Shown here: piece by piece, positions 1 through 30,927 of the stretch | Numbering within the stretch: the first letter of the stretch is position 1 | Layout of the letters: each line of letters opens with the position of its first letter | Sequence record: NC_049394.1 | Length of the DNA stretch: 30,927 nucleotides | Reading direction: 5' to 3' (one strand) | DNA from: Escherichia phage ESSI2_ev129 | The notes under the pieces: generated by a model | What the model was told of the DNA's origin: nothing | What the model saw: only the letters and a program-made list of their open reading frames with translations | The model's database searches: none | Program-made: the position numbers and the translations under genes

Positions 1-43
1 ACAGAGTAGATCGTCGGCAGCGTCAGATGTGTATAAGAGACAG
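1..43. other. Illumina Nextera adapter / Tn5 mosaic-end sequence (library artifact, not biological)
   Basis: Bases 3-43 read AGAGTAGA + TCGTCGGCAGCGTC + AGATGTGTATAAGAGACAG (index-like octamer, Nextera read-1 adapter, 19-bp mosaic end). The exact reverse complement is at 30879-30927. Confidence 0.9.
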
Positions 44-196
44 GTAGCGCCGTTTTTGTCTGCGAAAGATTTATTTTGTCTGTTCATCGCTGCGCCAGCG
101 CAGCGCCATGCGCACGATCTTTTATGTATGTTGCGTTGGGTTAATTTGTTGTCTGAAGTGCTGAGAATGCGTTCTGCTGCGTCTGAGGAAGGGTAT

Positions 197-219
197 AAAA
201 AAGCCCGCTTTATGCGGGC
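197..219 (-). terminator. Rho-independent terminator closing the minus-strand late operon
   Basis: GCCCGC(203-208)/GCGGGC(214-219) 6-bp GC stem with 5-nt loop, followed on the minus strand by a T6 run (plus-strand A-run 197-202). Lies 13 nt past the stop of the last late gene at 232. Confidence 0.55.
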
Positions 220-231
220 GTGTTGTCATGG

Positions 232-1935
232 TCAGGCAATTATACTCTGGTACTTGCTCCGGGTCTGCCCGGCTTTCGTCGCCGTCTGTGTAAACTCTGC
301 GGCATTGGTTGGAGTCCCAACGGTTGGGTGTGAATGGTTCGCACATTGCTGCGCCAGCTCTGCCAGTAAATCAATGGTATCCAGCATCATGGTCAGGGCG
401 TTGATGCTCTCACTGCCAATATGGACAGTTGCCCCCATGACCTGCTGACCGCCTGCGGCCACTGATTTACGCAGTGCGGCAATCTTCTCTGTCAGGCTTT
501 CGCCAACCTCCACGGCTACAGCACCGCCCACTTTAGTGGACTGCTGTCCTGCTATGTCCGTTTCTTCGTTTCCTTCAATACTGGCCAGCCTGTTACCTTT
601 CACCGCCTGGCTGTAATCACCGGCGCTTACCTGCTGGATGGCTCCGGCCAGCAGTGTGGCGGTTCCCAGTACTGTGGTTTTATCCGTGGCTTTCACCGTG
701 GTTTTACGGCTGACCAGTTCGCGCTGTTCCGTATCGGCTTTTACGGTTCGCGCCATCGATGTTTCACTGATGGTCTGATCGGTCTGCCTTACCCAGTCTC
801 CAGCCTGCGTCACCCTCTGGGATACTTCTTCCCGCTGCTGCTGCAATTGCTCACCGGGTTTAACGTCCGGCAGGCTGGTGCCATCCGGCAGCGTCTGCCT
901 GATAAAGGGTTTATCCGGTCTGCCTCCCGTGAATGCAACCTCAACCAGCGTCCCTTCTGGCGGAAACTGAAACATACCTGAATCATTCCCGGCCATCGGT
1001 ACCGGCAACGGCACCGCTGAATAAACAGGCGTCTGATTGTCTGGATTTCCGTCTGCGTCAAGCAGCTGCACGTCCACAGCGTAACGTGGCCGGAAAGGAT
1101 CGGCAAAGTTACCGCTTTTTACCGGCTCTGAATGCGCCACGACTCTGGCCATCTTTGGCAAATGAAGCCCGGATGCCAGTTCCGGGTAATGGCTTTCAAT
1201 CTGCCGTTGCGCCGGTGTTTTCTGCAAAGGTTTACCCGTTGCGCGGTTTCTCGGCGTCCATGTGATCGCCATCGTGTCATTCGTCAGGTGAACTTTAGTC
1301 ACGCGTTCACCGTTCATCTCCACCCCTGGCCGCATAGTCTGGATCACAGGTAATGTCACAGAGTTACCGCCAGCAGCCCCCTGGCTGAACTCTGACGGGA
1401 TTTCTACGGGACGACCGGCAAACAATGATTTTTCTGCGCCTCCGACGTAAAGCGAACCATCAGGCAACTGGTACCAGATGTAATCCTGGATGCCGAACGC
1501 CCTGCCCAGATTGTTCAGCAACTGATAGCCGGTACCGTTATGGGTGAAATGTGGGATAGGGGTATCGCTGTACTGTGCATCAGGCACACTGACCGTGATC
1601 CCGCTGTTTTCTTCCAGCCAGCCCGCAATTTCACGCAAAGTCGGGTGTTGAAACGAACATGGCCACATCCTTTCAAACACACCTACCAGCTCACGAATGA
1701 ACAGACGCTGAAAACCGTTTTCTGCGGGCTGCGATCGCTCCACATACCCCGTAAACCAGCGCAAAAGCAGATCGGTATACCCCACATCCAGCCGCACCAG
1801 TTTTCCGGTGTAATCGGTTGTTGTCTCTGCGGTGATGAAGCCCCGGCCGCAGCTGTTCAGCTCCAGTACCAGGCTGGCATCCACCAGGTGAACTTCATCC
1901 GTTGAAAGGTAAAGGCGTTTTACTGGTTTCATCAT
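232..1935 (-). CDS. Baseplate hub-spike fusion protein (gpV-like OB-fold and His-rich apex, about 290-aa N-terminal extension; VgrG-like architecture)
   Basis: 567-aa ORF. Central segment PVPMAGNDSGMFQFPPEGTLVEVAFTGGRPDKPFI resembles the P2 gpV/gp5 OB-fold; C-terminal ANHSHPTVGTPT resembles the gpV apex HxH motif. ATG at 1933-1935 overlaps the upstream stop by 1 nt. Last gene of the late operon. Confidence 0.55.
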   Translation of the reverse strand: MMKPVKRLYLSTDEVHLVDASLVLELNSCGRGFITAETTTDYTGKLVRLDVGYTDLLLRWFTGYVERSQPAENGFQRLFIRELVGVFERMWPCSFQHPTLREIAGWLEENSGITVSVPDAQYSDTPIPHFTHNGTGYQLLNNLGRAFGIQDYIWYQLPDGSLYVGGAEKSLFAGRPVEIPSEFSQGAAGGNSVTLPVIQTMRPGVEMNGERVTKVHLTNDTMAITWTPRNRATGKPLQKTPAQRQIESHYPELASGLHLPKMARVVAHSEPVKSGNFADPFRPRYAVDVQLLDADGNPDNQTPVYSAVPLPVPMAGNDSGMFQFPPEGTLVEVAFTGGRPDKPFIRQTLPDGTSLPDVKPGEQLQQQREEVSQRVTQAGDWVRQTDQTISETSMARTVKADTEQRELVSRKTTVKATDKTTVLGTATLLAGAIQQVSAGDYSQAVKGNRLASIEGNEETDIAGQQSTKVGGAVAVEVGESLTEKIAALRKSVAAGGQQVMGATVHIGSESINALTMMLDTIDLLAELAQQCANHSHPTVGTPTNAAEFTQTATKAGQTRSKYQSIIA

Positions 1936-2480
1936 TAACCCAAAGCATCATTGACGGGCTTCAGCACTTTGCGTTCAAACCACGTCAGTTTTTCTTCATC
2001 TTCTCCGGCAGACTGGCCACCGGACTGTCCCACACTACCGGCAGTCTGTTTTTTTGCGGTCGTCTTACCTGTTGCCCTGGCCTCTCGCTTTTCCTGCACG
2101 CTGATATGTTCCGCCAGTGTGAATGTCACCAGCCAGGCCATTTTCCCGTCCTGCTGGGGTGCATCCAGCATTCCGCTGAACGTTGCTTCACGAAAATTAA
2201 CAGCACGGGCAACTTCATGCGCCACGCGGTACTTCTGACGATTACCACTGGCATCGGTAGCACTGGCCAGCTCAAAAATACGCTTCAGTATTTCAGGCTG
2301 TTTAAAAGGTATTTCACCGCTGATCCGCAGTTCCTTTCCCTTTGCTCCCTGCTCTGATTTTGTTGTGGCACTGGTCTGGCCGGACTGATCTTTATCCTGA
2401 AATTGCTGTGAAACAGTCACCCGCATGTTTTTCAGTTGGATGGTTTCGCCATTAAGCGCCAGTGTCGGGATCGAAGTCAT
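1935..2480 (-). CDS. Hypothetical tail-module protein (possibly gpU-like), function unassigned
   Basis: 181-aa ORF, ATG at 2478-2480 preceded by AAAGGGAA Shine-Dalgarno; overlaps the upstream gene by 29 nt and the downstream start by 1 nt. No motif recognised. Confidence 0.45.
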   Translation of the reverse strand: MTSIPTLALNGETIQLKNMRVTVSQQFQDKDQSGQTSATTKSEQGAKGKELRISGEIPFKQPEILKRIFELASATDASGNRQKYRVAHEVARAVNFREATFSGMLDAPQQDGKMAWLVTFTLAEHISVQEKREARATGKTTAKKQTAGSVGQSGGQSAGEDEEKLTWFERKVLKPVNDALG

Positions 2481-3177
2481 GAATCATTCCCTTTATTCCA
2501 TCAAGATTATCGCCAACCAGCATCATGGCAGCTGTGTAAACGGCAGACTGCTGCGGAATGTCCTTCACCAGTTCCAGTAACGTGGTACCGGTGTCTCCGC
2601 TGGCAGTAAAAACCCACGCTCTGGCACTCTTCCCCTGTAAATCATTCAGGCCGCTGGCCACATCACTGATAAGCTGGTCACGTAGCTGCGTGAACTCGCC
2701 CAGCTGTTTTTTCAGCCCTTCGATATCAAACCCGGCACCCGCCGCCTTTTGTGCATGGCTGATTGCCGCAGCAGATAAAGCTGCCCTGCTGGTTGGTACA
2801 GACAGCGGAATGGACGCAGGTAACGCAGCGGCGGTTTTCGCAGGGATCTGCATCTTTTCAATAGCCAACGCTGCGGCGGATTGCGCCAGCCGTTTGACCT
2901 GCATGAATGCCGGGGCGGGGAAAATCCCGACCAGGTTATTCAGGCTGGCCATAAAGTTTTCCTGCGTCTGTCCGGTGACCATCATAATCACCACATCCGC
3001 ATTCCCCCCTGTTCCGGCCAGGCGTTCAGCAAGATAGCGAACGGCATTAACCGGGCTGAGATATGCCCCGTTCGCTGTCTGCTGTCCCAGCCCATAAATC
3101 CACGGATGCGCAGGGACGATCGAACAGTTCAGCGCAGCAACTGAATCCGTGAAGGCCAGACGTGCTTCACGCCACAT
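2452..3177 (-). CDS. Hypothetical protein downstream of the tail fibre assembly gene (structural or accessory, unassigned)
   Basis: Track ORF is 2452..3213; start refined to ATG 3175-3177 (MWREARL...), preceded by GGAGGTG with 7-nt spacing and 5 nt after the Tfa stop. 241 aa, Ala/Gly-rich, contains ASGDTGTTLLEL. No confident family match. Confidence 0.45.
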   Translation of the reverse strand: MWREARLAFTDSVAALNCSIVPAHPWIYGLGQQTANGAYLSPVNAVRYLAERLAGTGGNADVVIMMVTGQTQENFMASLNNLVGIFPAPAFMQVKRLAQSAAALAIEKMQIPAKTAAALPASIPLSVPTSRAALSAAAISHAQKAAGAGFDIEGLKKQLGEFTQLRDQLISDVASGLNDLQGKSARAWVFTASGDTGTTLLELVKDIPQQSAVYTAAMMLVGDNLDGIKGMIHDFDPDTGA

Positions 3178-3754
3178 TTCCAGGCACCTCCGGCCACACA
3201 ATTTCTGCCGCATCTTCCGGTTGAATACGATTCAGTAAAACGCGGTATTTTTTCCATGCGGTAAGCAGCAGTGCTTCTTCTTCGGTTGCCATGTCTAAAT
3301 CAACGGCATCCTGCAATGTGGCAATGGCGTCATTGGCCTGTTTAAGCAGGCTTTTCTTTTCGGCGTCTGCCTCGCTGACTAATGCAATTCGCATGGCCTC
3401 CGCATCATCCACCCACGCCTTACCATTCCATTTTTGCAAGGCATTAGCCGGTGCTGACGTGGTTGTCCCTTCCGGGTAAGCGCCTGGCTCGGTGATCACC
3501 AGTTCATTACCGTTTTCTGTATCAAACACCACCTCACCACGGTGATCCTCACGGGAAATCCATCTTTGCTTCTCTGAATCAAAAATCGCCACAAACCCCG
3601 CTTTGATTGCCGGTGGCTTTATCGTGGTGCAGTTAGCTGGCAGTCCGGTATGCGCAGGAATAAAAGCATCACCCGAACCAATAAATTCATTCGTATCGGA
3701 ACGCAGGTTATAAACAGTAACTGTTTGATCGGTTTCACTCATTTTAAAAGTCAT
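3167..3754 (-). CDS. Tail fibre assembly protein (Tfa / P2 gpG-like chaperone)
   Basis: 195 aa immediately downstream of the tail fibre with ATGA start/stop overlap at 3754; acidic C-terminal region (..LLLTAWKKYRVLLNRIQPEDAAEIVWPEVP) typical of the Tfa family. Confidence 0.75.
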   Translation of the reverse strand: MTFKMSETDQTVTVYNLRSDTNEFIGSGDAFIPAHTGLPANCTTIKPPAIKAGFVAIFDSEKQRWISREDHRGEVVFDTENGNELVITEPGAYPEGTTTSAPANALQKWNGKAWVDDAEAMRIALVSEADAEKKSLLKQANDAIATLQDAVDLDMATEEEALLLTAWKKYRVLLNRIQPEDAAEIVWPEVPGNVA

Positions 3755-5328
3755 TATGCGAGTCTCACTATGTAGTTAAATGCAATATTCTTAACGGTCG
3801 TTTCTGCGTTGCCCGACGCGGCGACGGTAATGGTGTGACTGTGTGCGCCAATGGCTACGGTATGAGAGTGAGCGCCAATACCTACGGTGTGATTATGTGC
3901 GCCAATGGCTACGGTGTGCGCGTGGTTTCCCGCCGAACTGGTTGCGGCTCGCCCCTGATCGCTACGTGGTACCCCCCAGTCACTACCACCTGATTGCACA
4001 TTCCCGCCATAACCAATGGTGTGCGTATGCGCTCCCGTGGTATTTGTCGTTTTCGTGCCATAGTCAAACGTAGTCGCCGTTTTAGTGCCGTAATCAAAGG
4101 ATGATGTTGGTTTTGTCCCCAAATCCGTACTGGATGCACTGGCGGTGTGGGCATGGGATTTATTGCCATCATCTTCATAGGAGAGAACTGCGCGACCGTC
4201 TGGTTTCCCTTTGATAGTCTGCCCACGCGCATCAGGAATTACGCCCGATGGATACGCGATTGCCAGTAAAGGATATGCAGCCTTATCAAAAGATTGTCCC
4301 TGCATAATTGCCCACCCTGCCGGTGGGATATCTGTTGACCACGGAAGCGGCACACCAACCGGCAGAACATCACTACGACTTAAAACGGCCAGTTCACCCA
4401 GATCCAGGCTTTTTCTTGCTTTTACCTTGTCGTTAACATCAGCAAGGTTTGCATCCTTACGCAAAAAATCACTGCTGGCCTGCTGTTCTCCCAGGCTACC
4501 TTTTGGCCGTAAATCCGTGATGTTGCCATCCACATCAATGCTGGCCACAGCAAACACATAATGCTGAACCCCGTTCTGAACATAATCAGCAAGATTTGCA
4601 GTCACCGTGATTTTGCTCTGCACATTCCAGACACTGGTCAATGTCCCTGTCCAGCACACATCCAGCCAGACTTTTACCGGCTTTGTCGTCACCGTAATAT
4701 TCTGATTCGCAGCCAGTGACGCACGCAATCCAGCCACATAACCCGTGCCTTTCGTGACAAAAAACTGATTGCCAGTTTTGGCTACCAGATAGCCGTTACC
4801 AAAAAACGCCGCCGCACCATAGATATCCATATTTTCCAGGCGCTGGCGCTCATCCATTCCGGCCATACGCGCAGTAAAATCAATCTGCCAGGTTTCAGCG
4901 GGTGTATTAATCCCGGTTTCCGTCTGTGCGCCGTTGTACTCCATCAGAAACGAGCGGGTCAGCACGTTCCCCTGTTGCCCTTCTTTTGTTTTCAGTTTCT
5001 GCTGTGATGGTGCATGGACAATCATTGCCAGCGTACCGCTGGCCTTATTGAGCAGACCGATCCAGTTAAAACTGAAATCACCCACATCTGCGCCCAGCAC
5101 TACGGAATAGACCACCCCGTTTTCATTCACCACACCGGTGCGGGTAACAGCCTGCCGGTGAACAATCTGTGCTGTCGGTGGCAACGCTTCATTGCGGTCA
5201 ACAGGTGTATCCGGGTTTAAATCCGGCACACTGGCAAAAACAAATTCGTCCAGTAGTACCGGTTCACCCGTTGCGCCCTGCTGTGCTTTCCAGTTTTCAA
5301 ACGCCAGCGTGATGGCTGTCTGTGACAT
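3754..5328 (-). CDS. Tail fibre protein with tail-collar domain and C-terminal His-x-His repeat tip
   Basis: 524 aa. Strong Shine-Dalgarno AAGGAGG upstream of ATG 5326-5328. Collar-like segment [33 protein letters not shown]-terminal repeats FDYGTKT x2 and (H-x-H-T-V/I) x5 (..[34 protein letters not shown]..), encoded by three 27-bp DNA repeats at 3841-3921. Confidence 0.8.
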
Positions 5329-5338
5329 AAAAACCTCC

Positions 5339-5926
5339 TTACAAACTCGCGCTGAATGTTGCGCTGCGGGCTTCCGTCCCTGCTAACGTCGCCGGGTAAA
5401 CCACATATTCCCCCTGATCCCACCCGGCCCGGATAACCAGGCTTTCAGACGTGATCACCTCAAACTGATAACGGCGGCATGTTCGCCCGTACTGGCGGAT
5501 TATCTGGATCAGCAGCTGCGTGTTGTCTGCAATCTGGCTGTCTGTAACCCGAACCAGAATCACATCCCAGTCGATATCCGGTTGCCGTTCTAACAGTTCC
5601 ACATAACCAATTCCCAGCCGTTCAAAGATATTGATAAACCCCTCTACTGAACCGGCATCCCGCGCATTCACGAAGGCAAAAGCCACGCGTTTGCGGAACA
5701 GGGTCAACGGTTCACCATCAAAGCGGGTGATATCCCGGTCATAAGCCAGCAGGTTCAGTAATGCCGGTGTACACGTCAGCGGATCAAACTGGTTCACTGG
5801 CCAGGTAACCCAGCCGTAAACCTCAGCCCAGAACCGCCGCGCCGTTTTCAGTAATTTCCCCGGTTCGCCTTTATTCATCCAGGAAGGCAAGACCATCCCG
5901 GCCAGCTTTTTCATGAACTCATTCAT
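5339..5926 (-). CDS. Baseplate/tail protein, P2 gpI-like
   Basis: 195 aa. Segment [25 protein letters not shown] resembles the conserved gpI motif (W.P.TCP..LLP.LA...D.WD). Position between the J-like gene and the fibre matches the P2 J-I-H order. Confidence 0.6.
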
Positions 5927-7103
5927 TCTCGATATTCACCGTCAGTGATTTCAGACGCGGCACGCTCAGTTCACTGGTAATGTCTCCCAGCGAAAATGTC
6001 AGTGATTCCGTCTGCGCAAAAGTTTTATGAATTTCCCGCCCCAGTTGCGAAAAGGAAAACCGCGAATATGGCCACGTCTTTCTGACGTCATAATCAGCAT
6101 TTTCACGAAAGGCACAGCGGATCATATTTTCAATGCCGCCTTTCAGCGTTTTCACTTCTTCGTCACTGAAGTTGTTCAGATTTTTGACATAAACCGTGAC
6201 GGCCAGATCGTGAAGCGTTTCCGGCATGGGGTAACACTGCATATCATCACCATGCCCGTGGTGCCCCAGCGTGTTGATATAGTCATTCACTGCATCCACG
6301 AACGGCGCTGATGCCACCCCACTGTCCAGTAATAAAAAGGCGTTGGCTGTTCCTGGCCCCCTCGGTGCTTCATGCTCAAAGAAAATCCGATCGATACTCA
6401 ACCCGGCAACACTGGCGATCATTGAGCGATAAACCGCATCAGTGTGGTAATTCCCCACCAGATTGAACTGATTGCGGCAACGCTCGCGCAGTTCATCATC
6501 ACTTTCCTCGTCAGCCCCCGGCACGGTCAGCCAGTTTTCCTCACTGGCCACGTGGCTGATACCACTGACCGCCACCGGCAGAATGCGGTAATATCCGGGC
6601 GCAAGGTTATATGCGCCCCCGGCGCCAGTGGCTTTCACCGGTAGCAATGCGCTGGCCGCACCGGAAGTGATCACCACATCCTCAGTGGTGGCCAGCTCAT
6701 ACACTCGCCCGTTAATGCGTTCTGTCTGGATAATCGTCCCGGCTTTGACCGTCACAACGGCCTTTGCATCTTCTTTGAAGAACCGAATCACCCCCTGTGC
6801 TGCGCTCGCCGGTTTTGCCGTGACGTTCACCGCCCAGGCCAGCAAACGCAACATGCTCCCACTGGCTGTGGCCACAAACATATTGGCCAGCACGGTTAAC
6901 ACCAGAACGTCTTTAAGCCACATCACCGGGGCGGTCACAATGGCGGTGATTAATCGCCAGAACGGTGACATGCGGGATGTATTGGTGATAATTCCCTCAT
7001 CTGCTGCAATCGCATTGAAGCGTTCCCGCACTTCGGCTTCCGTTACCGGCATACCGCTATCTTTCACCACTTCTTCAAAATCAACCTGCGGTTTTTCCGT
7101 CAT
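5919..7103 (-). CDS. Baseplate J-like protein (gp47/J family, tentative)
   Basis: Track ORF is 5919..7157; start refined to ATG 7101-7103 (MTEKPQ...), which forms an ATGA overlap with the upstream stop at 7100-7102. About 394 aa in the expected baseplate position; family call by position and size only. Confidence 0.5.
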   Translation of the reverse strand: MTEKPQVDFEEVVKDSGMPVTEAEVRERFNAIAADEGIITNTSRMSPFWRLITAIVTAPVMWLKDVLVLTVLANMFVATASGSMLRLLAWAVNVTAKPASAAQGVIRFFKEDAKAVVTVKAGTIIQTERINGRVYELATTEDVVITSGAASALLPVKATGAGGAYNLAPGYYRILPVAVSGISHVASEENWLTVPGADEESDDELRERCRNQFNLVGNYHTDAVYRSMIASVAGLSIDRIFFEHEAPRGPGTANAFLLLDSGVASAPFVDAVNDYINTLGHHGHGDDMQCYPMPETLHDLAVTVYVKNLNNFSDEEVKTLKGGIENMIRCAFRENADYDVRKTWPYSRFSFSQLGREIHKTFAQTESLTFSLGDITSELSVPRLKSLTVNIENE

Positions 7104-7429
7104 AAATCCACCTGCGCAGAGATCCCGCCAAAATCGTATGTACTCGCGGTTACCCACAGCCGCTTCTGACTCTCTTCACTGATTTCCACCGTACCCGGCA
7201 CAATGCGTTCATCATCTTCAATCAGTAATTCCATGCGGGTAAAAATATCCGCTCTCATTGTCGGACTACGTTCGGCAATTAATTCCGTCGCTAACCCACT
7301 TTCAATAATGGAATGAATAATGTCCTGCCCGATACTTTTTCGGTTATTACATAATTCAGGTTCATTACCGGTATTCAGAACAAAGTCACCGCCCTGAATC
7401 AGCAAATCGATATAAAGAACATCACTCAT
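7100..7429 (-). CDS. Small baseplate protein (gpW/gp25-like, tentative)
   Basis: Track ORF is 7100..7447; start refined to ATG 7427-7429 (MSDVLY...), giving an ATGA overlap with the tape-measure stop. 109 aa; segment SIGQDIIHSIIES is loosely W/gp25-like. Confidence 0.45.
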   Translation of the reverse strand: MSDVLYIDLLIQGGDFVLNTGNEPELCNNRKSIGQDIIHSIIESGLATELIAERSPTMRADIFTRMELLIEDDERIVPGTVEISEESQKRLWVTASTYDFGGISAQVDL

Positions 7430-9393
7430 GCGCCAAGCTCCTGCCATTCCATAAGCTGGGATGGCGAAAGTGCTTCTTTGGTATGGAAATGCACTTCACC
7501 AATTTTCCGGCTGTTATCGGTTACGGATTTACTGTTGCTGCTGATTGTTTTGCTGATACCACCTTTATCCACACCTTTTAAATCACCACCCGTTGACAGT
7601 GTATTTCCGGTTAATGGCTGCGTGGTTTCACTGGCCAGTGAAATATCCACGCCGGGAATTTTATTCAGTTTCTGAACAATCCAGTTCCACGACTTAAGAA
7701 ATCCCCCTTTGATTGACTTCCAGACATTATCAAACAGCGACATAATGCCGGAGGCCATCCCCTTTAATGCCTCAGACGGTGAAAATCCTGTCAGCAAAGA
7801 AATAAAGCTGTTCCATCCTTCACTGATATATTGCCAGGCTGAAGCAAAGATCCCCGCCAGCCATTTCACTACGGCGGCACATGTCTGGAAGGCTCCGGTA
7901 TTCATCACCGCTGCTTTTATCGTGTCCCAGTGCTTAACCAGCAGATAACAACCAGCAACCAGCAGCGCAATGGCACCAATCACAAGCAGAATCGGCCAGC
8001 TCATCAGGTTGATACCAATTCCGGCCATTATTGCGGCCATGCGTACCGCCAGTAACGCACCGCGCAAGAACTTCAGCGTGGTATTCCAGGCGATTACCGC
8101 TATTTGTGCCAGCCAGACAGTGGCCGTGTAGATTTTCGTAACCGCCGTTAACGCCACCCAAATCCCGCGCAATCCCATCATGATGAATCTGGATACCCCC
8201 ATCACGATATTGGCCACCGCACCCACGGCGGCAAAGCTCAGTAATGCCATCGACGCATAACCAATCACACGGGCAATGTTAGGAAATAACTGCATCCAGC
8301 GGGCAAAGGTCTGCCCCATATCAGCCAGGCGATTCAGAACCGGATACAGCACCGGGATCAACGTCAGTCCGATCACGGTCTGAATGGCTTTCAGAATTTG
8401 CACAAAGCGATCCCACGGCTTAACCATTTTTTGTGCCATTTCCTGGGTACGCTTCAGGCCGTCCGCGCCGCCCAGTTCGGTGATGTTCCGCTGAAGTAAC
8501 GCGACATTGCCGTAAAGCTGTTTAACCACTGCCGAACTGTCACCAAAGGCTGCATCCAGCTCCGCCTGGGCTTTCAGGTTCCCTTCAAGGCTTTTGCCAT
8601 ATTTGCCCTGCAACTTGATCAGCATTTCAGGCATGGACAGCATTTTGCCAGTAGAGTCAGTAAAGGACAGCCCCAGCTTTTTAGCGCCATCAATCGCACC
8701 GGTCATAAACCCTTCATAGGCGCTGCTGGCTTCCGTTCCCAGCGTCCGCTGAAGTTGCCCCAGCACGGCCAGCTGTTCATCCAGTCCCACGCCGTAGTTA
8801 GTCCCGACGCCGCGCGCACCTTCCATCAAATCCTTGATAGTGGCCATTTCTGTGCCAAAGGTTTTGCGCATATAAACCATCTTGCCCGCCAGTTGCTCGG
8901 CGAATTGAACCTTGCCCAGTCTGGTGGCATCGGCGGAAAAGTTACCGAACATCTGCCCCATAAATTCCGCCGTGTCCGCTGCTGTGGACTTGAGCGCAAA
9001 AGCCAGGGTATTGGCGACTTTCGTCACCTTCGGCAGTTCATTACCCGTCAGTCCGGCAATGGAAGCGTTAATATTTTCCGTGGATTTAACGAACTCCACC
9101 GCGCTGGCACCGTAGGTTGTACTGAAGCGCAGGGCATCACGCTGAACGGTCTTAAGCGCGGAATCATCAATCCCTTTTGCGGCGGCATCATTCAGCGCGT
9201 CATACATTTCAATTGCCGGTGATAACGCGCCCCTGATCGCCATTCCGACACCGGCCAGCGCCACCGCGCCGCCGCCAATCTGCATAAAGGCCGCTTTTGA
9301 TTTTTCCGCAAAGCCGGTGACGTTACCCTGCGCCTGTTTTAACGGGCGGGATAATTTATCAATCAGGCTTAATGTAAAATCTAATTGTTTCAT
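7426..9393 (-). CDS. Tail tape measure protein
   Basis: 655 aa, Ala/Gly/Leu-rich with a long central hydrophobic block (..IMGVSRFIMMGLRGIWVALTAV..ILLVIGAIALLVAGCYLLV..). Lies directly downstream of a chaperone gene with a frameshift site. ATG at 9391-9393. Confidence 0.85.
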   Translation of the reverse strand: MKQLDFTLSLIDKLSRPLKQAQGNVTGFAEKSKAAFMQIGGGAVALAGVGMAIRGALSPAIEMYDALNDAAAKGIDDSALKTVQRDALRFSTTYGASAVEFVKSTENINASIAGLTGNELPKVTKVANTLAFALKSTAADTAEFMGQMFGNFSADATRLGKVQFAEQLAGKMVYMRKTFGTEMATIKDLMEGARGVGTNYGVGLDEQLAVLGQLQRTLGTEASSAYEGFMTGAIDGAKKLGLSFTDSTGKMLSMPEMLIKLQGKYGKSLEGNLKAQAELDAAFGDSSAVVKQLYGNVALLQRNITELGGADGLKRTQEMAQKMVKPWDRFVQILKAIQTVIGLTLIPVLYPVLNRLADMGQTFARWMQLFPNIARVIGYASMALLSFAAVGAVANIVMGVSRFIMMGLRGIWVALTAVTKIYTATVWLAQIAVIAWNTTLKFLRGALLAVRMAAIMAGIGINLMSWPILLVIGAIALLVAGCYLLVKHWDTIKAAVMNTGAFQTCAAVVKWLAGIFASAWQYISEGWNSFISLLTGFSPSEALKGMASGIMSLFDNVWKSIKGGFLKSWNWIVQKLNKIPGVDISLASETTQPLTGNTLSTGGDLKGVDKGGISKTISSNSKSVTDNSRKIGEVHFHTKEALSPSQLMEWQELGA

Positions 9394-20130: not shown

Positions 20131-20450
20131 GGCGAAACAGGCTAAAATCCAGGCATCATTTAACAGCTGGAGCATGGAATATGCGAGTTCTGAAAATCGA
20201 ATGCCCGGAATGCGGCTCAAAGGCTGTTATTCGTAAAACGAACAGAAAGCACCGGCAGATTGCTGATATTTACTGCGCCTGTTCAGATGTTGAGTGTGGC
20301 CATACGTTTGTTATGAATCTGACGTTCTCCCACACTCTTAGCCCCAGCGCTAAAACGGGTGATGCGATGGTGCAAAAAATACTGAATGCACTTTCACCCG
20401 ATCAGCGCCAGATGGCATTAGACCTACTGAAAGCGACTCCCGCCGCCTGA
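20127..20450 (+). CDS. Ogr/Delta-family zinc-finger late transcription activator
   Basis: Cys pattern CPEC-x19-YCACSDVECGHTF matches Ogr/Delta/186-B (CPxC...Y.C.C....C..TF). ATG 20127 overlaps the portal stop (ATGA); alternative start ATG 20181 with GGAG upstream gives an 89-aa product. Confidence 0.75.
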   Translation: MRRNRLKSRHHLTAGAWNMRVLKIECPECGSKAVIRKTNRKHRQIADIYCACSDVECGHTFVMNLTFSHTLSPSAKTGDAMVQKILNALSPDQRQMALDLLKATPAA

Positions 20451-22797: not shown

Positions 22798-23800
22798 ACT
22801 GTCCCCCCATCAAGTAGGCTTTTATAAAAGCTGTCGCAGCTTCTGCATTCAGGGCGTTGCCATAGGTTCTAATTCGTCCCACTCTGGAGGAAGCCCCATT
22901 AACCAGAGGCTTAAGGCCGGATTTAATTGGCCTCCACTTTCCATCTCTGCACAGAAGCCAGTCAGCATCTTTCCAGAAGCCGTTAACCGCACCGGCCCCG
23001 CTATCTGAGCAACCACATCCAGCCTGTCTATCGACAGCTTGCCATTGCGAATCCTCCCCCCAGAATATCCGCCCTTGTGATCGCTCGCTGTTGGAGTCGG
23101 CCAGCCCGCTAACCTCGCCGCGCCGCCAAGCGTTGTACCTCGCTTCGGATGGTTTGCTGCCGCCCCCTCTCCTGAAATTTGATTGTTGTCCTGTGTAGTT
23201 GGAGTTGGCCACCCTGCAAGTTGAACCGCTGTTTGCAAGTTCAATCCCCCTTGACGGCCTGCATTGCTGGGATGTTTCCATGCATTCGCTGTCGGTGTTG
23301 GCCACCCAGTAAGTTCTGTCTCTGATATTCGGCGCACCGACGCTCGCAGCCGGAAACGCACACGCCCCGAAGGCATAGCCCATTGCTTCCATGTCAGCTT
23401 GTACAAGGTCGATCCAGTCGTTTGCGTGAGCACTCGCAGATTGCTCGCCAAAGATAACGAGAGGGCGGCGCTGCCCGACCAGCCAATGCATGGCGGGCCA
23501 TAAGTGCCGCTCATCAGCAAACCCTTTTCCTTTGCCTGCCGCGCTGAAAGGTTGGCATGGACATGATCCCGACCAGACTGGTTTATCTTCTGGCCATCCA
23601 GCACGGCGCAGGGCATATGACCAAACTCCAATCCCTGCAAAGAAATGGACTTGAGTGAATCCTCGCAAGTCGTCTGGATGGACATCTTCAATACTCCTTT
23701 CATCAACTTCACCGGCCATAATGCGACCGGCAGAAATATGCGTACGCAGTCGCTCTGCCGCAAACGGATCAATTTCGTTGTAATATGCGGAAGGTTTCAT
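22790..23800 (-). CDS. DNA (cytosine-5) methyltransferase, with a two-frame anomaly in its central region
   Basis: This frame carries motif I (FFAGIGVW), motif IV (GSCPCQPFSAAGKG), motifs VII-VIII (EAMGYAFG..GAPNIRDRTYWVA) and a motif-X-like C-terminus (YGNALNAEAATAFIKAYL). ATGA overlap with the Dam stop. A second same-strand frame (22849..23772) holds a triplicated LAGWPTPT module; see findings. Confidence 0.7.
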   Translation of the reverse strand: MKPSAYYNEIDPFAAERLRTHISAGRIMAGEVDERSIEDVHPDDLRGFTQVHFFAGIGVWSYALRRAGWPEDKPVWSGSCPCQPFSAAGKGKGFADERHLWPAMHWLVGQRRPLVIFGEQSASAHANDWIDLVQADMEAMGYAFGACAFPAASVGAPNIRDRTYWVANTDSECMETSQQCRPSRGIELANSGSTCRVANSNYTGQQSNFRRGGGSKPSEARYNAWRRGEVSGLADSNSERSQGRIFWGEDSQWQAVDRQAGCGCSDSGAGAVNGFWKDADWLLCRDGKWRPIKSGLKPLVNGASSRVGRIRTYGNALNAEAATAFIKAYLMGGQYA

Positions 23801-24648
23801 GCGCTGACCTCAACCGGAACAGGCCATTTAAGAATCAACTCTGCCGCCATTTTCGGGCTTGCAGCTGCCGCACCAACGCTACGCGGTGCATTCACCTGAA
23901 CAGCGTCAAACCCTGCATACAGGTAATGCACCATTTCCAAATCGCTGTTTGACGCGACCACCTTAATCCCACGTTCTGCCAGGCGTCGTAGCTTACGCGC
24001 CAACCGACCCTGATCCAGGTGCGAAAAACCGCGCTCATGGTAAGCGGTGAAATTGTCGGTATCAGTCAGATAAGGCGGATCACAGTAAACAACGTCACTC
24101 CCGCCCCGAACCAAATCGAGCGTTTCTGAATAGTGGGCAGTAATGAACGTTGCACGCTTCGCTTTTTCGGCAAAGGCGCGTATTTCATTGGCAGGGAAAT
24201 AAGGCTTCTTGTACTTACCGAACGGGACATTGAACTGACCACGGCGATTATACCGGCACAGGCCATTGAAGCAGTGCCGGTTCAGATACAGGAAACGCGC
24301 AGCATTTTCAATGGATTCAGAACCGGATTTACCGGACAGGTTGAAGGCATCCCGCACTGCGTAATAGAAAACTGCACGGTTTTCTTCATCGCCTAACGAA
24401 CCGGCAGTAAACAGGATCTCCAGCTCATTCAGCAGCGCATCAGTGTGATACGCCATCGCCTTATAAAGATTAACCAGATCAGGATTCACATCTGCGATCA
24501 GATACTCGTCATAATCCGTATTCATCATGACGGCGCAGGAACCTGCGAACGGTTCAACCAGGCGTTTACCTTCTGGAAGGTGCGGACGCAGCTTAGGCAT
24601 AAGGCGGGCTTTGCTGCCCACCCATTTAAGCGGAGTTTTAACGGCCAT
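23797..24648 (-). CDS. dam: DNA adenine (N6) methyltransferase, Dam family
   Basis: 283 aa. N-terminal [19 protein letters not shown] (AdoMet motif) and catalytic VYCDPPYL (DPPY). GGAGG Shine-Dalgarno 6 nt before ATG 24646-24648. Confidence 0.85.
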
Positions 24649-27027: not shown

Positions 27028-27036
27028 GGTGTTCCC

Positions 27037-27540
27037 TCACATCAGGCCGGTGGCGTTGGTTGTGACCAGATCCACCGCAGCGGCCAGAACTGGCGCAGAG
27101 TGAATACGGCTTTCAACGGTATAAGCCAGCACGGATAAGCTACGGATTGCATCGCGGGCACGATCCAGAATTTGAGTACGGCGGGCGGCGGTCATATGGC
27201 CAGTTGATACGGCTTCCCCAGCAATCGCGCCCACACACGCAGTAGCGCTCAACGCGCAAAATTGCATGTTGGCTTCAGTGGCGTTATTGACTGGAACGGA
27301 GGGCAAGCAGTTAATCTGCCCCAGCATCCCATCAAGTAAACGAGCATCTTCCGTGTAATCGGTGATAGCCAGCAGCTCGTCACAGGTCAGGCGGTGCGGT
27401 TGAACCGGGTTCAACTTATTGCGCAGGATCTGCGGACGCATACCAACGGCAGCGGCCACATCTTCCAGATTGTGCGACAGCGCAAACGCTCGGCAAGCTG
27501 CATCAAAATGTGCATGTTTGGAAGTTTGGTAATCAAACAT
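27037..27540 (-). CDS. cII: Phage regulatory protein CII (186-type lysogeny establishment factor)
   Basis: Track start is a GTG; refined to ATG 27538-27540. N-terminus MFDYQTSKHAHFDAACRAFALSHN..LRNKLNPVQPHRLTCDELLAITDYTED parallels 186 CII; 167 aa. Confidence 0.75.
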   Translation of the reverse strand: MFDYQTSKHAHFDAACRAFALSHNLEDVAAAVGMRPQILRNKLNPVQPHRLTCDELLAITDYTEDARLLDGMLGQINCLPSVPVNNATEANMQFCALSATACVGAIAGEAVSTGHMTAARRTQILDRARDAIRSLSVLAYTVESRIHSAPVLAAAVDLVTTNATGLM

Positions 27541-27572
27541 AGTCAGCACCCTCTCTGCGTTTCAAAATCGAA

Positions 27573-27794
27573 TCAGTTAAGTACGATGTTGCAACCCGCG
27601 AGGGCGTCTATGGTCAGAGCCGCGATATTGATCATGACTTTTTCACGCCCCATATCTTTGCGAAGGCGGTGACGAGGCAAGCGGCCATCTTTCAACATCG
27701 CTTCAACGGTATCTTCTGGTAAACCAGTGAGTTCGATGTATTTCTCTTTTGAGATAGAAGGGACGGGTAGATTGATTGAAATGTTAGTGGTCAT
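27573..27794 (-). CDS. Apl/Cox-family excisionase-repressor (tentative)
   Basis: 73 aa, first gene of the leftward early operon, immediately upstream of cII and divergent from cI, as apl in 186 / cox in P2. GAGGAA Shine-Dalgarno. Confidence 0.55.
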   Translation of the reverse strand: MTTNISINLPVPSISKEKYIELTGLPEDTVEAMLKDGRLPRHRLRKDMGREKVMINIAALTIDALAGCNIVLN

Positions 27795-27929
27795 AGTGCA
27801 AGATTCCTCGTTTGGAAGTTAACCGTGGCTAGCGGTGTTAAAAGGTGAACAACCTGTTTTGGAATGTTCGCCTGCAAAATAACTTTCCAAATGCGAAGTG
27901 TCAACCAATAACTTTCCCAAGGCGGAATT
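27795..27929. promoter_or_regulatory. Immunity switch region between apl and cI, with candidate operator repeats
   Basis: 135-bp gap between divergent apl/cox-like and cI starts. Four copies of a 9-11-bp motif: TTGGAAGTT (27812-27820), TTGGAATGTT (27859-27868) and, inverted, AACTTTCCAA (27881-27890) and AACTTTCCCAA (27910-27920). Confidence 0.5.
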
Positions 27930-28550
27930 ATGGATCTCAAAAACGGAGGCCAGGCAGTTATAACCAGGCTCCTTGAAGCTTATGGATTTAAGACAAGGCA
28001 GGCTTTATGCGACCAATTGAAAGTATCAACAAGCACCATGGGAACGAGATGGATGCGTGATGTATTCCCAGCTGACTGGGTTATACAGTGCACAATCGAA
28101 ACTGGTGCATCAGTAGAATGGCTATCGTTCGGAACAGGCGAGAAATTTCCCAACGGAACCAGCAAAAACGCAAATGAGAATGAAGATTCCGCAAATGAGA
28201 ACTTGTTAGGTGATGTTGTTTCTGTTACCCGAAAAAAGGTAATAGATGGAAATTTATACGATTCTAATTTTTACATGCTCGACAAAGCCATGCTCCCATC
28301 CCACCTCAGCAAACCCATTATTATTGTGGATGATGATGTCAGCTACTTAGCCGAGCAGAAAAATGATGAATTAACAGACGGTACATGGCTTGTTGAAATT
28401 GAAGGGCAAGTGAGCATAAAAGAGCTAATACGCATTCCAGTAGGCAGGGTTCGTGTAACCTCAGTGCCTGGTAGCGCTAGTTTTGAGTGCGGTATTGATG
28501 ACTTAAAACCTATCGCAAAATGCCACTACTACCTGCTGACAGATGTTTGA
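27930..28550 (+). CDS. cI: CI-type immunity repressor (186 CI-like; no LexA-like autocleavage domain evident)
   Basis: 206 aa; N-terminal helix-turn-helix-like region (..QALCDQLKVSTSTMGTRWMRDVFPADWVIQ..); no Ala-Gly / Ser-Lys S24 peptidase motifs recognised; upstream of int on the same strand. Confidence 0.7.
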   Translation: MDLKNGGQAVITRLLEAYGFKTRQALCDQLKVSTSTMGTRWMRDVFPADWVIQCTIETGASVEWLSFGTGEKFPNGTSKNANENEDSANENLLGDVVSVTRKKVIDGNLYDSNFYMLDKAMLPSHLSKPIIIVDDDVSYLAEQKNDELTDGTWLVEIEGQVSIKELIRIPVGRVRVTSVPGSASFECGIDDLKPIAKCHYYLLTDV

Positions 28551-28627
28551 TCGAGAGTGAAACAAACATTGACACTGTATAAATAAACAGTAAATCATAC
28601 CCTATAGCAAGTAATAAGGGGTATTGA

Positions 28628-29677
28628 ATGGCTATTCGTAAACTTGAAACGGGTAAATGGCTCTGTGAATGCTACCCTTCCGGACGTTCTGGGCGCAGGG
28701 TACGAAAACAATTTGCAACCAAAGGTGAGGCAATGGCCTTTGAGCGCCACACAATGGATGAAGCCGCGTCTAAACCGTGGCTGGGGGATGTTGTTGATCG
28801 CCGCTCTTTAAAAGACATTGTAAACCTCTGGTATAAACTGCATGGCATATCTCTTACGGCTGGCGAACACGTATATGAAAAACTACTGCTGATCGTGGAC
28901 GCACTAGGAAACCCTCTGGCTACATCGCTAACCCCAAAAATGTTTGCTCATTACCGCGATAAACGCCTAACCGGAGAGATTTATTTCAGCGAAAAATGGA
29001 AGAATGGCGCTAGCCCTGTAACGGTTAATCTTGAGCAAAGTTATTTAAGCGGTGCCTTTAGTGAACTGATTCGCTTGGGCGAATGGCTTCAGCCAAACCC
29101 TCTTGAAAACATGCGAAAATTTACCATTGCTGAAAAGGAAATGGCCTGGCTGACACATGAACAGATTGCTGAACTTCTGTATGACTGCCAGCGTCAGAAC
29201 AAGCTGTTGACGCTGGTTGTGAAGATTTGCCTCAGTACAGGAGCAAGGTGGAGAGAGGCCGTCAATCTGACAAGGTCTCAGGTAACGAAGTACCGCATCA
29301 CTTTCACCAGAACGAAGGGAAAGAAAAACAGAAGCATCCCTATTAGCAAGGAGCTATATGAAGAGATCACCGTGCTGAAGGGGTTTAAGTTTTTTGATGA
29401 TTACTATTTTCAATTTGCATCAGTGATGGATAAAACTTCCATCATTCTGCCGCGAGGCCAGCTAACGCACGTTCTTCGCCACACCTTTGCTGCTCACTTT
29501 ATGATGTCCGGAGGAAACATACTCGCCCTTCAAAAAATACTGGGGCACCACGATATAAAAATGACTATGCGCTATGCCCACCTCGCGCCAGATCACCTTG
29601 AAACTGCGTTAAGGTTTAACCCCTTAGCTACTATGCAAAATGGCGACAAAATGGCGGCAGCGGTTGCCACTCCCTAA
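28628..29677 (+). CDS. int: Tyrosine integrase (P2/186 family)
   Basis: 349 aa. Catalytic signature ..HVLRHTFAAHF.. (H-x-x-R) and ..MRYAHLAPDH (Tyr) near the C-terminus; TGARWREAV region (Arg box). Confidence 0.85.
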   Translation: MAIRKLETGKWLCECYPSGRSGRRVRKQFATKGEAMAFERHTMDEAASKPWLGDVVDRRSLKDIVNLWYKLHGISLTAGEHVYEKLLLIVDALGNPLATSLTPKMFAHYRDKRLTGEIYFSEKWKNGASPVTVNLEQSYLSGAFSELIRLGEWLQPNPLENMRKFTIAEKEMAWLTHEQIAELLYDCQRQNKLLTLVVKICLSTGARWREAVNLTRSQVTKYRITFTRTKGKKNRSIPISKELYEEITVLKGFKFFDDYYFQFASVMDKTSIILPRGQLTHVLRHTFAAHFMMSGGNILALQKILGHHDIKMTMRYAHLAPDHLETALRFNPLATMQNGDKMAAAVATP

Positions 29678-29739
29678 CCTTTAATACTCCTAACTACTCT
29701 TTTAACTTATTGAGTTTAAAGCAAGTAATTGTTTTTCCT

Positions 29740-29768
29740 AACCCATTTATATAAATGGGTTTTTTGTT
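29740..29768 (+). terminator. Rho-independent terminator after int (perfect 22-bp palindrome)
   Basis: AACCCATTTAT|ATAAATGGGTT perfect inverted repeat (29740-29761) followed by TTTTTGTT. Confidence 0.6.
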
Positions 29769-29933
29769 GCCTGAATTTTTCAACCCATGAAATCAATAGA
29801 TTACACCAACCATTTCCCATGCTTGGCGACAAAGTGGCGACACAACTAAAGTCCCTCCTTCCCACAACGAAAACCATTGTCTAAAAATCGTATTGATTTA
29901 AAATCCCTTTTTTTCTTGTCAGGATGACTAATC

Positions 29934-30551
29934 ATGACTTCCTACGACCAACTTAAAGAATGTATCCGCCTTGAAGTCATCGGCCATGACAAATCCTTTT
30001 CATGGCGTAAAGCGTTACTTCGTACCCGGCGTAATCAGAAGAAGCACTTCCTGTTCTGGTGGCGCATCGCTTCATGGCTCTATGGCCAGAATAGTAAGTT
30101 CAAAAAACGCATTGCCCGCAGAATTGAAAACCGCCTCAAGTACCGGCACAGCGTTGATATTTCCCTCTCCTGCAAAATTGGCAAGGGTTTAAACATTGCT
30201 CATCTGAACGCAATTGTTATTACTGATAATTGCGTGATTGGTGATTTTGCCGACCTGAAGCAAGGCATCACCATAGGGTTACGCACAGACAGTGCCGACG
30301 CGATGATAGTCATTGGCGATCATGTTGATATTGGCTGTAACTCGTCCATTCTGGGCGGCAAGGTAACGATCGGTAATAATGTCACCATTGGGGCGCATTC
30401 ACTGGTACTTCAGAACATCCCCGACGACACCGTTTATAAAAACAAAATTATGCCGGTGTACACGTCAAAACTGCCACAGCAGGAAAATCAGCCTTTCGTC
30501 ACGGGTAATGCGACAAAGGAAGCGCCCCGTTCCGCAGAAGTAGCACTGTAA
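29934..30551 (+). CDS. Hexapeptide-repeat (left-handed beta-helix) acetyltransferase, serine-acetyltransferase/WcaB-like
   Basis: 205 aa; AGGA Shine-Dalgarno 9 nt before the ATG. Hexapeptide repeats ..ITDNCVIGDFADLKQGITIG..VIGDHVDIGCNSSILGGKVTIGNNVTIGAHSLV... Markedly AT-rich gene and flanks compared with the rest of the window. Confidence 0.7.
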   Translation: MTSYDQLKECIRLEVIGHDKSFSWRKALLRTRRNQKKHFLFWWRIASWLYGQNSKFKKRIARRIENRLKYRHSVDISLSCKIGKGLNIAHLNAIVITDNCVIGDFADLKQGITIGLRTDSADAMIVIGDHVDIGCNSSILGGKVTIGNNVTIGAHSLVLQNIPDDTVYKNKIMPVYTSKLPQQENQPFVTGNATKEAPRSAEVAL

Positions 30552-30878
30552 TTTCGATGTACAAATTTCAGTTGTGAAGATTTCATAAATTTACGCGCAG
30601 CCCGCGCCAGCACTTACAAGCGGGCTTCTCTCTATGATGTCAGGCTTCCCGTCCAACGATCCACAAATACCGCCTAAAATATAATTTTTCCTTTATATTC
30701 TGTAGGTTGCAACTTCACACCGATCCCTCACAGATCCTTTTTACTGAAAAAAAATGAAATTTCTTTCAATCATTTCAGTTTCTGTTCTCCGCAAAGCCGC
30801 CAGTAATGGCGCGATCTGGCGCTCTGGTTTGTAGAAAAATAAAACTGAAAAAATTTCCAGATCCAGAAACCGCAGGCG

Positions 30879-30927
30879 CTGTCTCTTATACACATCTGAC
30901 GCTGCCGACGATCTACTCTGTGTAGAT
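30879..30927. other. Illumina Nextera adapter read-through (library artifact)
   Basis: CTGTCTCTTATACACATCT + GACGCTGCCGACGA + TCTACTCT + GTGTAGAT; reverse complement of bases 1-43 plus six further adapter bases. Confidence 0.9.

Follow-up and report, generated by a model that had tools for sequence, protein, structure and literature searches.

Phages P2 and 186 use cos packaging, with 19-nt 5' cohesive ends and a gpP/gpM terminase. In P2 the cos site has the portal gene Q on one side and the replication/cargo region on the other. The window studied here, the whole 30,927-nt record NC_049394.1 of Escherichia phage ESSI2_ev129, resembles P2 and 186 in its homologous large (42% identical) and small (30%) terminase subunits, portal, capsid, scaffold, gpA and Ogr, and its switch is of the 186 CI/CII/Apl type. 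An assignment to the P2/186 type, as made in an earlier note on this DNA, holds at the protein level. It does not hold at the nucleotide level, since P2 covers 0.7% of the insert between the terminal adapters and cos is not beside the portal gene; the tail module is likewise not P2-like at this level. The genes of the window are as follows.

232-1935, minus: tail spike/baseplate hub protein, the last tail gene (gpV OB domain and gp5 C repeats; homologue annotation)
1935-14333, minus: tail, lysis and head-completion genes, collinear at 97% with annotated ev015 and prophage L026, the basis also for the calls marked (c)
3754-5328, minus: tail fibre (confirmed by PHROGs)
5919-7157, minus: baseplate J (c)
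7426-9393, minus: tape measure (c)
around 9825-10953, minus: lysis cassette (c)
11415-12542, minus: sheath (c)
13746-14333, minus: head completion (c)
14539-15243, minus: terminase small subunit, gpM-like (30% identical to P2 gpM)
15247-16284, minus: P2-family major capsid protein (homologue annotation)
16332-17171, minus: gpO-type scaffold (homologue annotation)
17297-19072, plus: terminase large subunit (42% identical to P2 gpP)
19069-20130, plus: portal (homologue annotation)
20127-20450, plus: Ogr/Delta zinc-finger late activator
20758-22797, minus: gpA replication endonuclease
22790-23800, minus: C5 cytosine methylase, absent from relatives
23797-24648, minus: Dam-type N6-adenine methylase
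27037-27549, minus: CII, CP76 family
27573-27794, minus: small Apl/Cox-like ORF, called from its position, by analogy
27930-28550, plus: 186-type CI repressor
28628-29677, plus: tyrosine integrase, 97% identical to a Kluyvera georgiana prophage integrase (contig NZ_LXEU01000085.1)
29934-30551, plus: hexapeptide-repeat (serine) O-acetyltransferase, a cargo gene (homologue annotation)

This is the full gene set at a 186-like genome size that the earlier note had described. It includes P2-type packaging, head and replication genes and a 186-type switch, and host flanks are lacking; the earlier note had also recognised no tRNA, and ARAGORN found none in the window.

The ICTV line for a genus is 70% nucleotide similarity or more across the genome. 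The window passes this line with Escherichia phages ESSI2_ev040 (90% coverage at 95.6% identity) and ESSI2_ev015 (87% at 94.8%), while identity multiplied by coverage is about 86%, under the 95% species line. Its P2-family capsid, gpO scaffold, gpP/gpM terminase, gpQ portal, gpA and Ogr form the gene set of Peduoviridae/Quadragintavirus, to which both phages belong (Mathieu et al. 2020, PMC6969025). Gene order, genome start and adapter contamination at the cos core are the same in all three, but the window has the extra C5 cytosine methylase (22790-23800), a different exonuclease region and more copies of a 45-nt His-rich repeat, and combines CI/Int of the ev040 type with an acetyltransferase of the ev015 type upstream of cos. 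Cronobacter phage ESSI-2 (Seongnamvirus) is collinear with the window and aligns to 75% of the insert at about 74% identity, but lacks the cargo acetyltransferase. The insert is the genome, in virion form, of an ESSI-2-like phage of the Peduoviridae (Quadragintavirus), and the window as a whole is a known phage type plus a sequencing artefact.

Terminal adapters and the probable cos core, split between the ends

The features of the window ends, and the attP region near them, are listed here.

1-43, plus: Nextera i5 adapter remnant, comprising AC (P5 end), index AGAGTAGA (3-10) and read-1 primer plus Tn5 mosaic end (11-43)
44-50, plus: right part of the cos core, GTAGCGC, positions 13-19 of GGCGGGTGCGGTGTAGCGC; probable left physical end region of the virion DNA
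51-80, plus: conserved flank right of cos, CGTTTTTGTCTGCGAAAGATTTATTTTGTC (conservation profiles)
about 29642-29842, plus: attP, intact (homology to prophage junctions; limits taken from a genome scan)
30699-30874, plus: conserved flank left of cos, with A/T-rich blocks TTTCAATC..TTTCAG, GTAGAAAAATAAAACTGAAAAA and GATCCAGAAACCGCA (conservation profiles)
30875-30878, plus: left part of the cos core, GGCG, positions 1-4; the following 8 nt, GGTGCGGT, are missing from the window
30879-30927, minus: i5 adapter as its reverse complement (the read-2 read-through form), with 6 extra P5 bases

The same i5 adapter stands at both ends in inverted orientation. Positions 11-43 read TCGTCGGCAGCGTCAGATGTGTATAAGAGACAG, directly preceded by AC and the index, and 30879-30927 are the exact reverse complement of ATCTACAC-AGAGTAGA-TCGTCGGCAGCGTCAGATGTGTATAAGAGACAG. 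We take these sequences to be the Illumina Nextera read-1/i5 adapter with its i5 index. The 19-nt mosaic end AGATGTGTATAAGAGACAG after TCGTCGGCAGCGTC, the 8-nt i5 index and the P5 tail are the marks of Nextera (Tn5) contamination, and P5 and i7 adapter parts quoted as clip sequences (PMC6969025) corroborate part of this identity. In the whole window the mosaic end occurs at these two sites only, so the insert is 44-30878 (30,835 bp); the relatives have no adapter at this position, where prophages read GGTGCGGT. The earlier note was therefore right that the termini are technical, with identical inverted Illumina adapters, and right about the limits of the insert. A 58-nt terminal inverted repeat was considered and rejected, as matches beyond the adapter are at chance level (8/15). 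A scan of IMG/VR for adapter-cos junctions gave 0 matches, so the window itself is absent from that collection.

What the adapters interrupt is a 19-nt core, GGCGGGTGCGGTGTAGCGC, that bridges both window ends, unchanged, in more than 90 prophages and metagenome contigs, and of which the window lacks only the middle 8 nt. In the E. coli prophages L002 and L026 the right end of the window continues into its left end, reading GAAACCGCAGGCG, then GGTGCGGT, then GTAGCGCCGTTTTTG. The same junction is found in 19/19 IMG/VR prophage loci and in 72 related metagenome contigs; in both sets the core is invariant wherever the search pattern left it free, and the flanks vary. The metagenome figure comes from 117 matches, of which 45 were left out, mostly unrelated chance matches to the 19-mer but including 8 related sequences (single-base core variants and the remnants L169 and L211). 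These two remnants retain nothing but the counterpart of the left flank at 30699-30874, a stretch that may hold binding sites for terminase or a host factor. In Yersinia phage vB_YenM_324 the core is retained as CAGGCGGGTGCGGTGTAGYGCCGTTT though the flanks are only about 73% identical; a literature search found no paper on this phage or on cos in ESSI-2-like genera.

All three public sister assemblies (ev015, ev040 and ev239) also break inside the core, with adapter at each break. That of ev015 starts with adapter, carrying a different index, followed by GTAGCGCC, and ends in GGCGGGTGC. In ev239 the end reads GGCGGGGGC, then i7 adapter, then poly-A, and its start is chimeric, with the join at core position 5. 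In ev040, which carries the same i5 index as the window, 42 nt of adapter are embedded between GGCGGGTGC and GTGTAGCGCC. The ends vary in position among the four assemblies, the right ends at core positions 4, 9, 9 and 9 and the left ends at 13, 13, 11 and 5. The window and its sisters are probably from one laboratory and pipeline and so are not fully independent. The ESSI-2 record, from another laboratory, starts GCGGGTGCGGTGTAG in the same core and has the same 15 nt at its end, as the P2 record likewise carries its annotated 19-nt cos at both ends. Seen in contigs rather than reads, and so only indirectly, the ends of the four Nextera assemblies and of the ESSI-2 record all fall within 19 nt, as expected of one fixed virion DNA end.

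This shared break point, together with the prophage junctions, makes it very probable that the contig ends are cohesive (cos) ends capped by untrimmed adapter. The DNA would have come from a virus-particle extract of a temperate ESSI-2-like phage, passed through a Tn5 (Nextera) library into a SPAdes-type contig. A P2-type terminase would cut at cos to give unit-length linear packaged DNA with fixed ends. With no library fragments spanning those ends, assembly would stop in the cos core from both sides and the central 8 nt, GGTGCGGT, would be lost; to judge from the contigs, junction-spanning reads are probably absent. The sole extension remaining in the assembly graph would be the adapter on short-insert read-2 read-through reads, and the i5 adapter would survive if these were clipped from TGTAGATCTCGG onward only. 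In the source study (PMC6969025) the DNA came from particles precipitated with PEG and treated with DNase, and the clipping of read 2 began only at TGTAGATCTCGG. Such clipping leaves exactly the adapter part found at 1-43 untrimmed and, combined with read-through, would place the inverted i5 adapter at both ends. The split of cos across the contig ends and the loss of its centre also explain why the earlier note recognised no cos. It is true that the window contains no P2 cos 19-mer at up to 3 mismatches, but a cos is there, divided between the two ends. The ESSI-2 15-mer, allowed up to 3 mismatches, has one match, at 14263-14277, which is at chance level.

Other origins of the contig ends

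The earlier note had the contig as a circularly permuted genome broken arbitrarily between the acetyltransferase (29934-30551) and the last tail gene (232-1935, minus). The position is correct, and the complete gene content, the intact attP and the joining of the window ends in prophages would all suit an excised circular or headful genome opened at random, with adapter added by chance. We nevertheless consider such an origin extremely unlikely. Out of about 30.8 kb, the break falls in all four assemblies in one stretch of 19 nt, a core that is invariant in prophages and in which the ESSI-2 record ends as well, and the terminase belongs to the P2 cos type. A headful genome has ends that vary from molecule to molecule, so that its assemblies close into circles with a terminal overlap and open anywhere; here the insert ends have no direct overlap (their longest common word is 8 nt), and 8 bases are missing where a k-mer overlap would be expected. 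In favour of a local dropout, in which the G+C-rich core of circular or concatemeric DNA was left uncovered by Tn5/PCR bias or over-clipping and the assembly broke there, all the Nextera assemblies may share one pipeline and Tn5 shows sequence bias. The core also contains TGTAG, with which the read-2 clip sequence begins, but a 5-nt match is far under the Trimmomatic simple-clip threshold. Adapter junctions inside the core show that it is a place where fragments begin and end, the ESSI-2 record of another laboratory has its ends there too, and the reads, of at least 200 nt (MINLEN 200, PMC6969025), are too long for 19 nt of G+C-rich sequence to interrupt their assembly. Dropout is thus very unlikely.

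Close relatives are common as prophages, and the window might have been cut as an integrated prophage from a bacterial assembly, with ends at attL/attR or in host DNA. This is scarcely credible and is refuted by the arrangement at attP. An integrated prophage would have its integrase at one end, the whole phage between attL and attR, and host genes beyond them. In prophage L026 the integrase and cargo genes are at opposite ends, adjoining mntS and mntR, with host chromosome separating them, whereas in the window integrase, attP and cargo gene are contiguous, the two genes being 256 bp apart with both attP arms there. Moreover, the window ends join each other and not host DNA, and host genes are absent from the window. 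Within attP, two direct copies of GGCGACAAARTGGCGRCA (29642-29659 and 29825-29842), putative Int arm sites, flank a block at 29741-29780 consisting of a hairpin and TTTTTTGTTGCCTGAA, where the integrase-side homology to prophage junctions stops. No tRNA was found at the prophage junctions. Two guides to the attP core were rejected: the L026 integrase is of another type, with core TATAATATAGC between mntR and mntS, and E. coli integrases 88% identical to that of the window diverge before the stop codon.

The evidence thus supports the insert as a complete phage genome minus 8 nt, in excised or virion form. The contig should be trimmed of its adapters, have GGTGCGGT restored and retain its natural cos-to-cos orientation; it should not be handled as a circle opened at random. 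Three RefSeq phage genomes contain this artefact too, one with 42 nt of adapter inside, and it can distort comparisons and decisions on where a genome starts.

Placement of the probable cos site and its proposed overhang

With the contig ends read as cos ends, a cos site is located for a widespread group of enterobacterial P2-family prophages, and its placement differs from that in P2. Its neighbours are the tail spike gene on one side and, on the other, the cargo region downstream of attP; in P2 and 186, by contrast, cos adjoins the portal gene Q, which here is at 19069-20130. The gaps around ogr, of 73 bp and 0 bp, leave no room for cos there. The core is G+C-rich and begins GGCG like that of P2, but it matches the P2 cos at only 11/19 positions; this and the placement away from the portal gene are points against reading it as cos. 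The placement matters for predicting the virion genome map and the host genes that adjoin cos in an integrated prophage.

The contig ends bound the overhang, which should include at least core positions 5-9 and lie within about positions 1-19. By analogy with P2, it would be a 5' extension of about 19 nt, GGCGGGTGCGGTGTAGCGC; it would be 15 nt if the ESSI-2 terminal redundancy is read literally. This 15-nt redundancy differs from the 19 nt of P2, a further point against the cos reading, as is the variation in end positions among the assemblies.

Phage termini are reported to be lost in Nextera (transposase) libraries (PhageTerm, PMC5557969). The present case is similar, with a contig that runs no further than the physical ends and lacks terminal sequence, but here the loss is only 3-8 nt and the adapter junctions are within the cos core, which points to Tn5 action on cos ends that were annealed and nicked. 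The cos ends would have annealed during library making, and Tn5 would have inserted into the nicked duplex. It is a tentative and rather doubtful proposal that ESSI-2-like Peduoviridae (Quadragintavirus, Seongnamvirus, Evevirus and Tresduoquattuorvirus) share a cos at the tail/attP junction with the 19-nt 5' overhang GGCGGGTGCGGTGTAGCGC, and that Tn5 prefers the nicks of annealed cos ends. If it were so, cos nicks could be placed with single-base precision from Nextera data, which are usually deemed of no use for termini. Given nicks at 0|1 and 19|20, the right ends at core position 9 (three of the four assemblies) and the left end at 11 would each be offset by exactly one Tn5 stagger of 9 bp.

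Contig ends and the core that joins them

Positions 1-43 of the window read AC-AGAGTAGA-TCGTCGGCAGCGTC-AGATGTGTATAAGAGACAG, and the reverse complement of this string plus six extra P5-tail bases forms 30879-30927. This is the same adapter in inverted orientation at both ends, as the earlier note had observed; it is the Nextera read-1/i5 adapter, with AGAGTAGA as the i5 index. A repeat finder returns the pair as the longest inverted repeat of the window, and its continuation 15 nt into the insert matches no better than chance (8 of 15 positions). Because the Tn5 mosaic end occurs in the window solely at the two ends, the insert is 44-30878 (30,835 bp), the bounds first proposed.

A query combining the right and left ends matches E. 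coli chromosomes as a single piece, the prophage junction reading ...GAAACCGCAGGCG-GGTGCGGT-GTAGCGCCGTTTTTG; the window ends are thus contiguous but for 8 missing bases. The same 8 bases are found in 19 of 19 IMG/VR prophage loci recovered with a left-end 21-mer, and all 72 related metagenome contigs recovered with a right-end 19-mer continue GGTGCGGTGTAG, six more metagenome relatives differing by a single base. Where the search pattern left the core free, it is invariant in both sets, whereas the sequence at a distance of 20-60 nt varies. Yersinia phage vB_YenM_324 has the core too, CAGGCGGGTGCGGTGTAGYGCCGTTT, within flanks that are ~73% identical; there, as in the window, it lies between the baseplate/spike gene and cargo genes.

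The core is numbered G1 G2 C3 G4 G5 G6 T7 G8 C9 G10 G11 T12 G13 T14 A15 G16 C17 G18 C19, and the window and three public sister assemblies all break inside it.

Ends of the four assemblies within the core
Window: right end G4, then adapter; left end adapter, then G13
ev015 (RefSeq): right end C9; left end adapter with a different index (GCGTAAGA), then G13
ev239: right end C9, then i7 adapter and poly-A; left end G5, joined to a second copy (117 nt) of the tail-fibre region at 5096-5212
ev040: right end C9; left end G11

The record of Cronobacter phage ESSI-2, from a different laboratory, ends there too: it starts GCGGGTGCGGTGTAG and has the identical 15 nt at its end, just as the P2 record has its annotated 19-nt cos at either end. 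Judged from these sequences, the contig break is cos and not an arbitrary point. The genome had been thought likely to be circularly permuted, and no cos site had been recognised. It is not circularly permuted: the insert ends do not overlap (longest common word 8 nt), and the sister assemblies break in the same core. The cos core is present, split over both window ends. The window is therefore the near-complete genome, short of 8 nt, of a phage of a known genus, in its natural cos-to-cos orientation and capped by untrimmed adapter.

The sister records carry Nextera adapter as well, at NC_049395.1 (ev015) 1-48, NC_049393.1 (ev040) 29624-29665 and the last ~75 nt of NC_049392.1 (ev239), positions 1-117 of the latter being the chimeric duplicate. 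The ev040 stretch, 42 nt of adapter with i5 index AGAGTAGA, lies within the genome at cos, where it connects the two ends, a join that evidently belongs to the "manual completions based on overlapping contig ends" of the source study (PMC6969025).

Immediately to the right of cos, at 83-115, a GCGCCAGCGCAGCGCC-type 12-nt unit differs in copy number from an E. coli prophage (L002, 21015-21065), in which CAGCGCCAGCGC is repeated. In two metagenome contigs (OKVL01001871.1 and a second) a chromosomal remnant, near IS1, T6SS Hcp and Ntox44 genes, preserves no more than ~180 nt of the flank left of cos; phage homology ends exactly after core T12, between GGCGGGTGCGGT and AATG..., and the remnant may be a scar of cos cleavage within an integrated prophage.

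Origin of the caps and the form of the cos ends

Mathieu et al. isolated four ESSI-2-like coliphages, precipitated the particles with PEG, treated them with DNase, extracted their DNA and used SPAdes for assembly; read 1 was clipped with the full i7 Nextera sequence, read 2 solely from TGTAGATCTCGG... onward (PMC6969025). This scheme leaves CTGTCTCTTATACACATCTGACGCTGCCGACGA and the index in short-insert read-2 reads, and both window ends are capped by exactly CTGTCTCTTATACACATCTGACGCTGCCGACGA plus index. In the genome interior such reads are outcompeted by the true continuation, whereas at a physical DNA end they are the sole continuation available. Loss of termini from Nextera libraries, reported in the PhageTerm paper (PMC5557969), agrees with the 3-8 nt missing here.

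Some fragments have an end within the core, which requires that Tn5 attacked a duplex there; the cohesive ends had therefore probably annealed without being ligated. With nicks in both strands, annealed ends of this kind would yield no amplifiable fragment across them, and none of the observed ends (right 4, 9, 9, 9; left 13, 13, 11, 5) conflicts with nicks at positions 1 and 19 or beyond them. With the 9-bp Tn5 stagger, right end C9 would pair with a top-strand nick between 0 and 1, and left end G11 with a bottom-strand nick between 19 and 20. On this thin evidence, a P2-like 19-nt overhang, GGCGGGTGCGGTGTAGCGC, might fit C9 and G11 if Tn5 favours pre-existing nicks. That reading leaves positions 4, 5 and 13 unexplained, and the ESSI-2 record, with its 15-nt redundancy, is at odds with it. 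Of the 19 positions of the candidate core, 11 match P2 cos, and the window contains no P2-type cos that is closer.

Gene content and relatives

Among public phage records the insert is closest to ev040 (95.6% identity over 90% of the insert) and ev015 (94.8%, 87%), both classed in Peduoviridae, genus Quadragintavirus, followed by ev239 (82%, 60%) and ESSI-2 (74%, 75%). Its order is collinear with that of annotated relatives:

First block, minus strand: tail spike, tail fibre, baseplate, tape measure, lysis cassette, sheath, head completion, TerS, capsid, scaffold
Second block, plus strand: TerL, portal, Ogr
Third block, minus strand: gpA, two methylases, exonuclease, CII, Apl/Cox-like ORF
Last block, plus strand: CI, Int, hexapeptide acetyltransferase

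The P2/186-type gene set and 186-like size claimed earlier hold at the protein level, with Pfam support for gpA, Ogr, CP76-type CII, 186-type CI, Int, Dam, C5 methylase, RNase T-type exonuclease and hexapeptide transferase, and with TerL 42% identical to P2 gpP and TerS 30% to gpM, but not at the nucleotide level, where P2 covers just 0.7% of the insert. A search of the window found no tRNA genes, as had been noted. Similarity to ev040 is ~86%, under the species line. Three of the four published isolates are present in the phage collection, and the window, which shares its i5 index with ev040, may be the unreleased fourth isolate of the Mathieu et al. set.

A C5 cytosine DNA methylase at 22790-23800 (minus strand), adjoining the Dam-type methylase, is an extra gene that ev015, ev040 and the related E. 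coli prophage L026 lack. At 14296-14532 (minus strand), between the head-completion gene and the small terminase subunit, a His-rich ORF without a PHROG match is made up of 4.1 tandem copies of a 45-nt unit (98% matches) that encodes GAHTHTVGAHSHSLG. Its copy number differs: the product has 78 aa in the window, 33 aa in L026 and 65 aa in ev015, where it is annotated 'L33'. The ORF accounts for the sole gap in an otherwise 97% identical window/ev015 alignment. A 27-nt tandem repeat (3.2 copies) at 3832-3918 (minus strand), in the C-terminal part of the tail fibre (3754-5328), encodes a Gly-Ala-His-x-His-Thr-Val-type motif of the same kind, which suggests a shared, putatively metal-binding HxH repeat.

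The excised form, attP and the position of cos

The chromosome of E. coli MFDS1019527 carries a close relative, inserted between mntR and mntS in the order attL, AAA ATPase, acetyltransferase, tail ... portal, Ogr, gpA ... CI, Int, attR. Int and the acetyltransferase, at opposite ends of that prophage, are 256 bp apart in the window (29677 to 29934), which contains no host gene; the excised form proposed earlier is thus borne out. When genomes were scanned with the window's Int, prophages turned up in Kluyvera (97% identical Int), Escherichia sp., Enterobacter, Citrobacter and others. Homology between these prophages and the window passes the int stop codon and stops at ~29779-29806, the aligned junctions sharing ...AACCCATTTAYATAAATGGGTTTTTTGTTGCCTG in every sequence, with differing host DNA beyond. 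The window has exactly two copies of an 18-nt motif, GGCGACAAARTGGCGRCA (29642-29659 and 29825-29842; chance expectation none), one on either side of the divergence point; the distal copy is also in ev040 and absent from the prophage junctions. The two copies probably serve as Int arm sites in an intact attP.

The P2 map places cos between the portal gene Q and the replication/cargo region, and attP between ogr and int. In the window, by contrast, Q, Ogr and gpA are packed together (gaps 0 and 73 bp), and attP and cos both lie in the integrase/tail-gene junction with cargo between them. The packaging machinery is P2-like, but cos does not occupy its defining P2 map position.

Cargo genes flank cos on both sides in this phage group. 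Comparing 29934-30878 of the window with 29666-30597 of ev040, an acetyltransferase gene is found between attP and cos in the former, as in ev015, whereas in ev040 one lies on the other side, between cos and the tail spike gene; additional cargo includes the AAA ATPase in L026 and an abortive-infection gene in ev040. Downstream of int (about 7180-7330 in the two loci), prophages of Kluyvera georgiana and Citrobacter pasteurii with the window-type Int lie upstream of the same short-chain-dehydrogenase-like host gene, with no tRNA at the prophage-host junction. The nearest integrase is that of Kluyvera (97%), E. coli reaching at best 88%, in keeping with the published proposal that other genera are the source of these coliphages.
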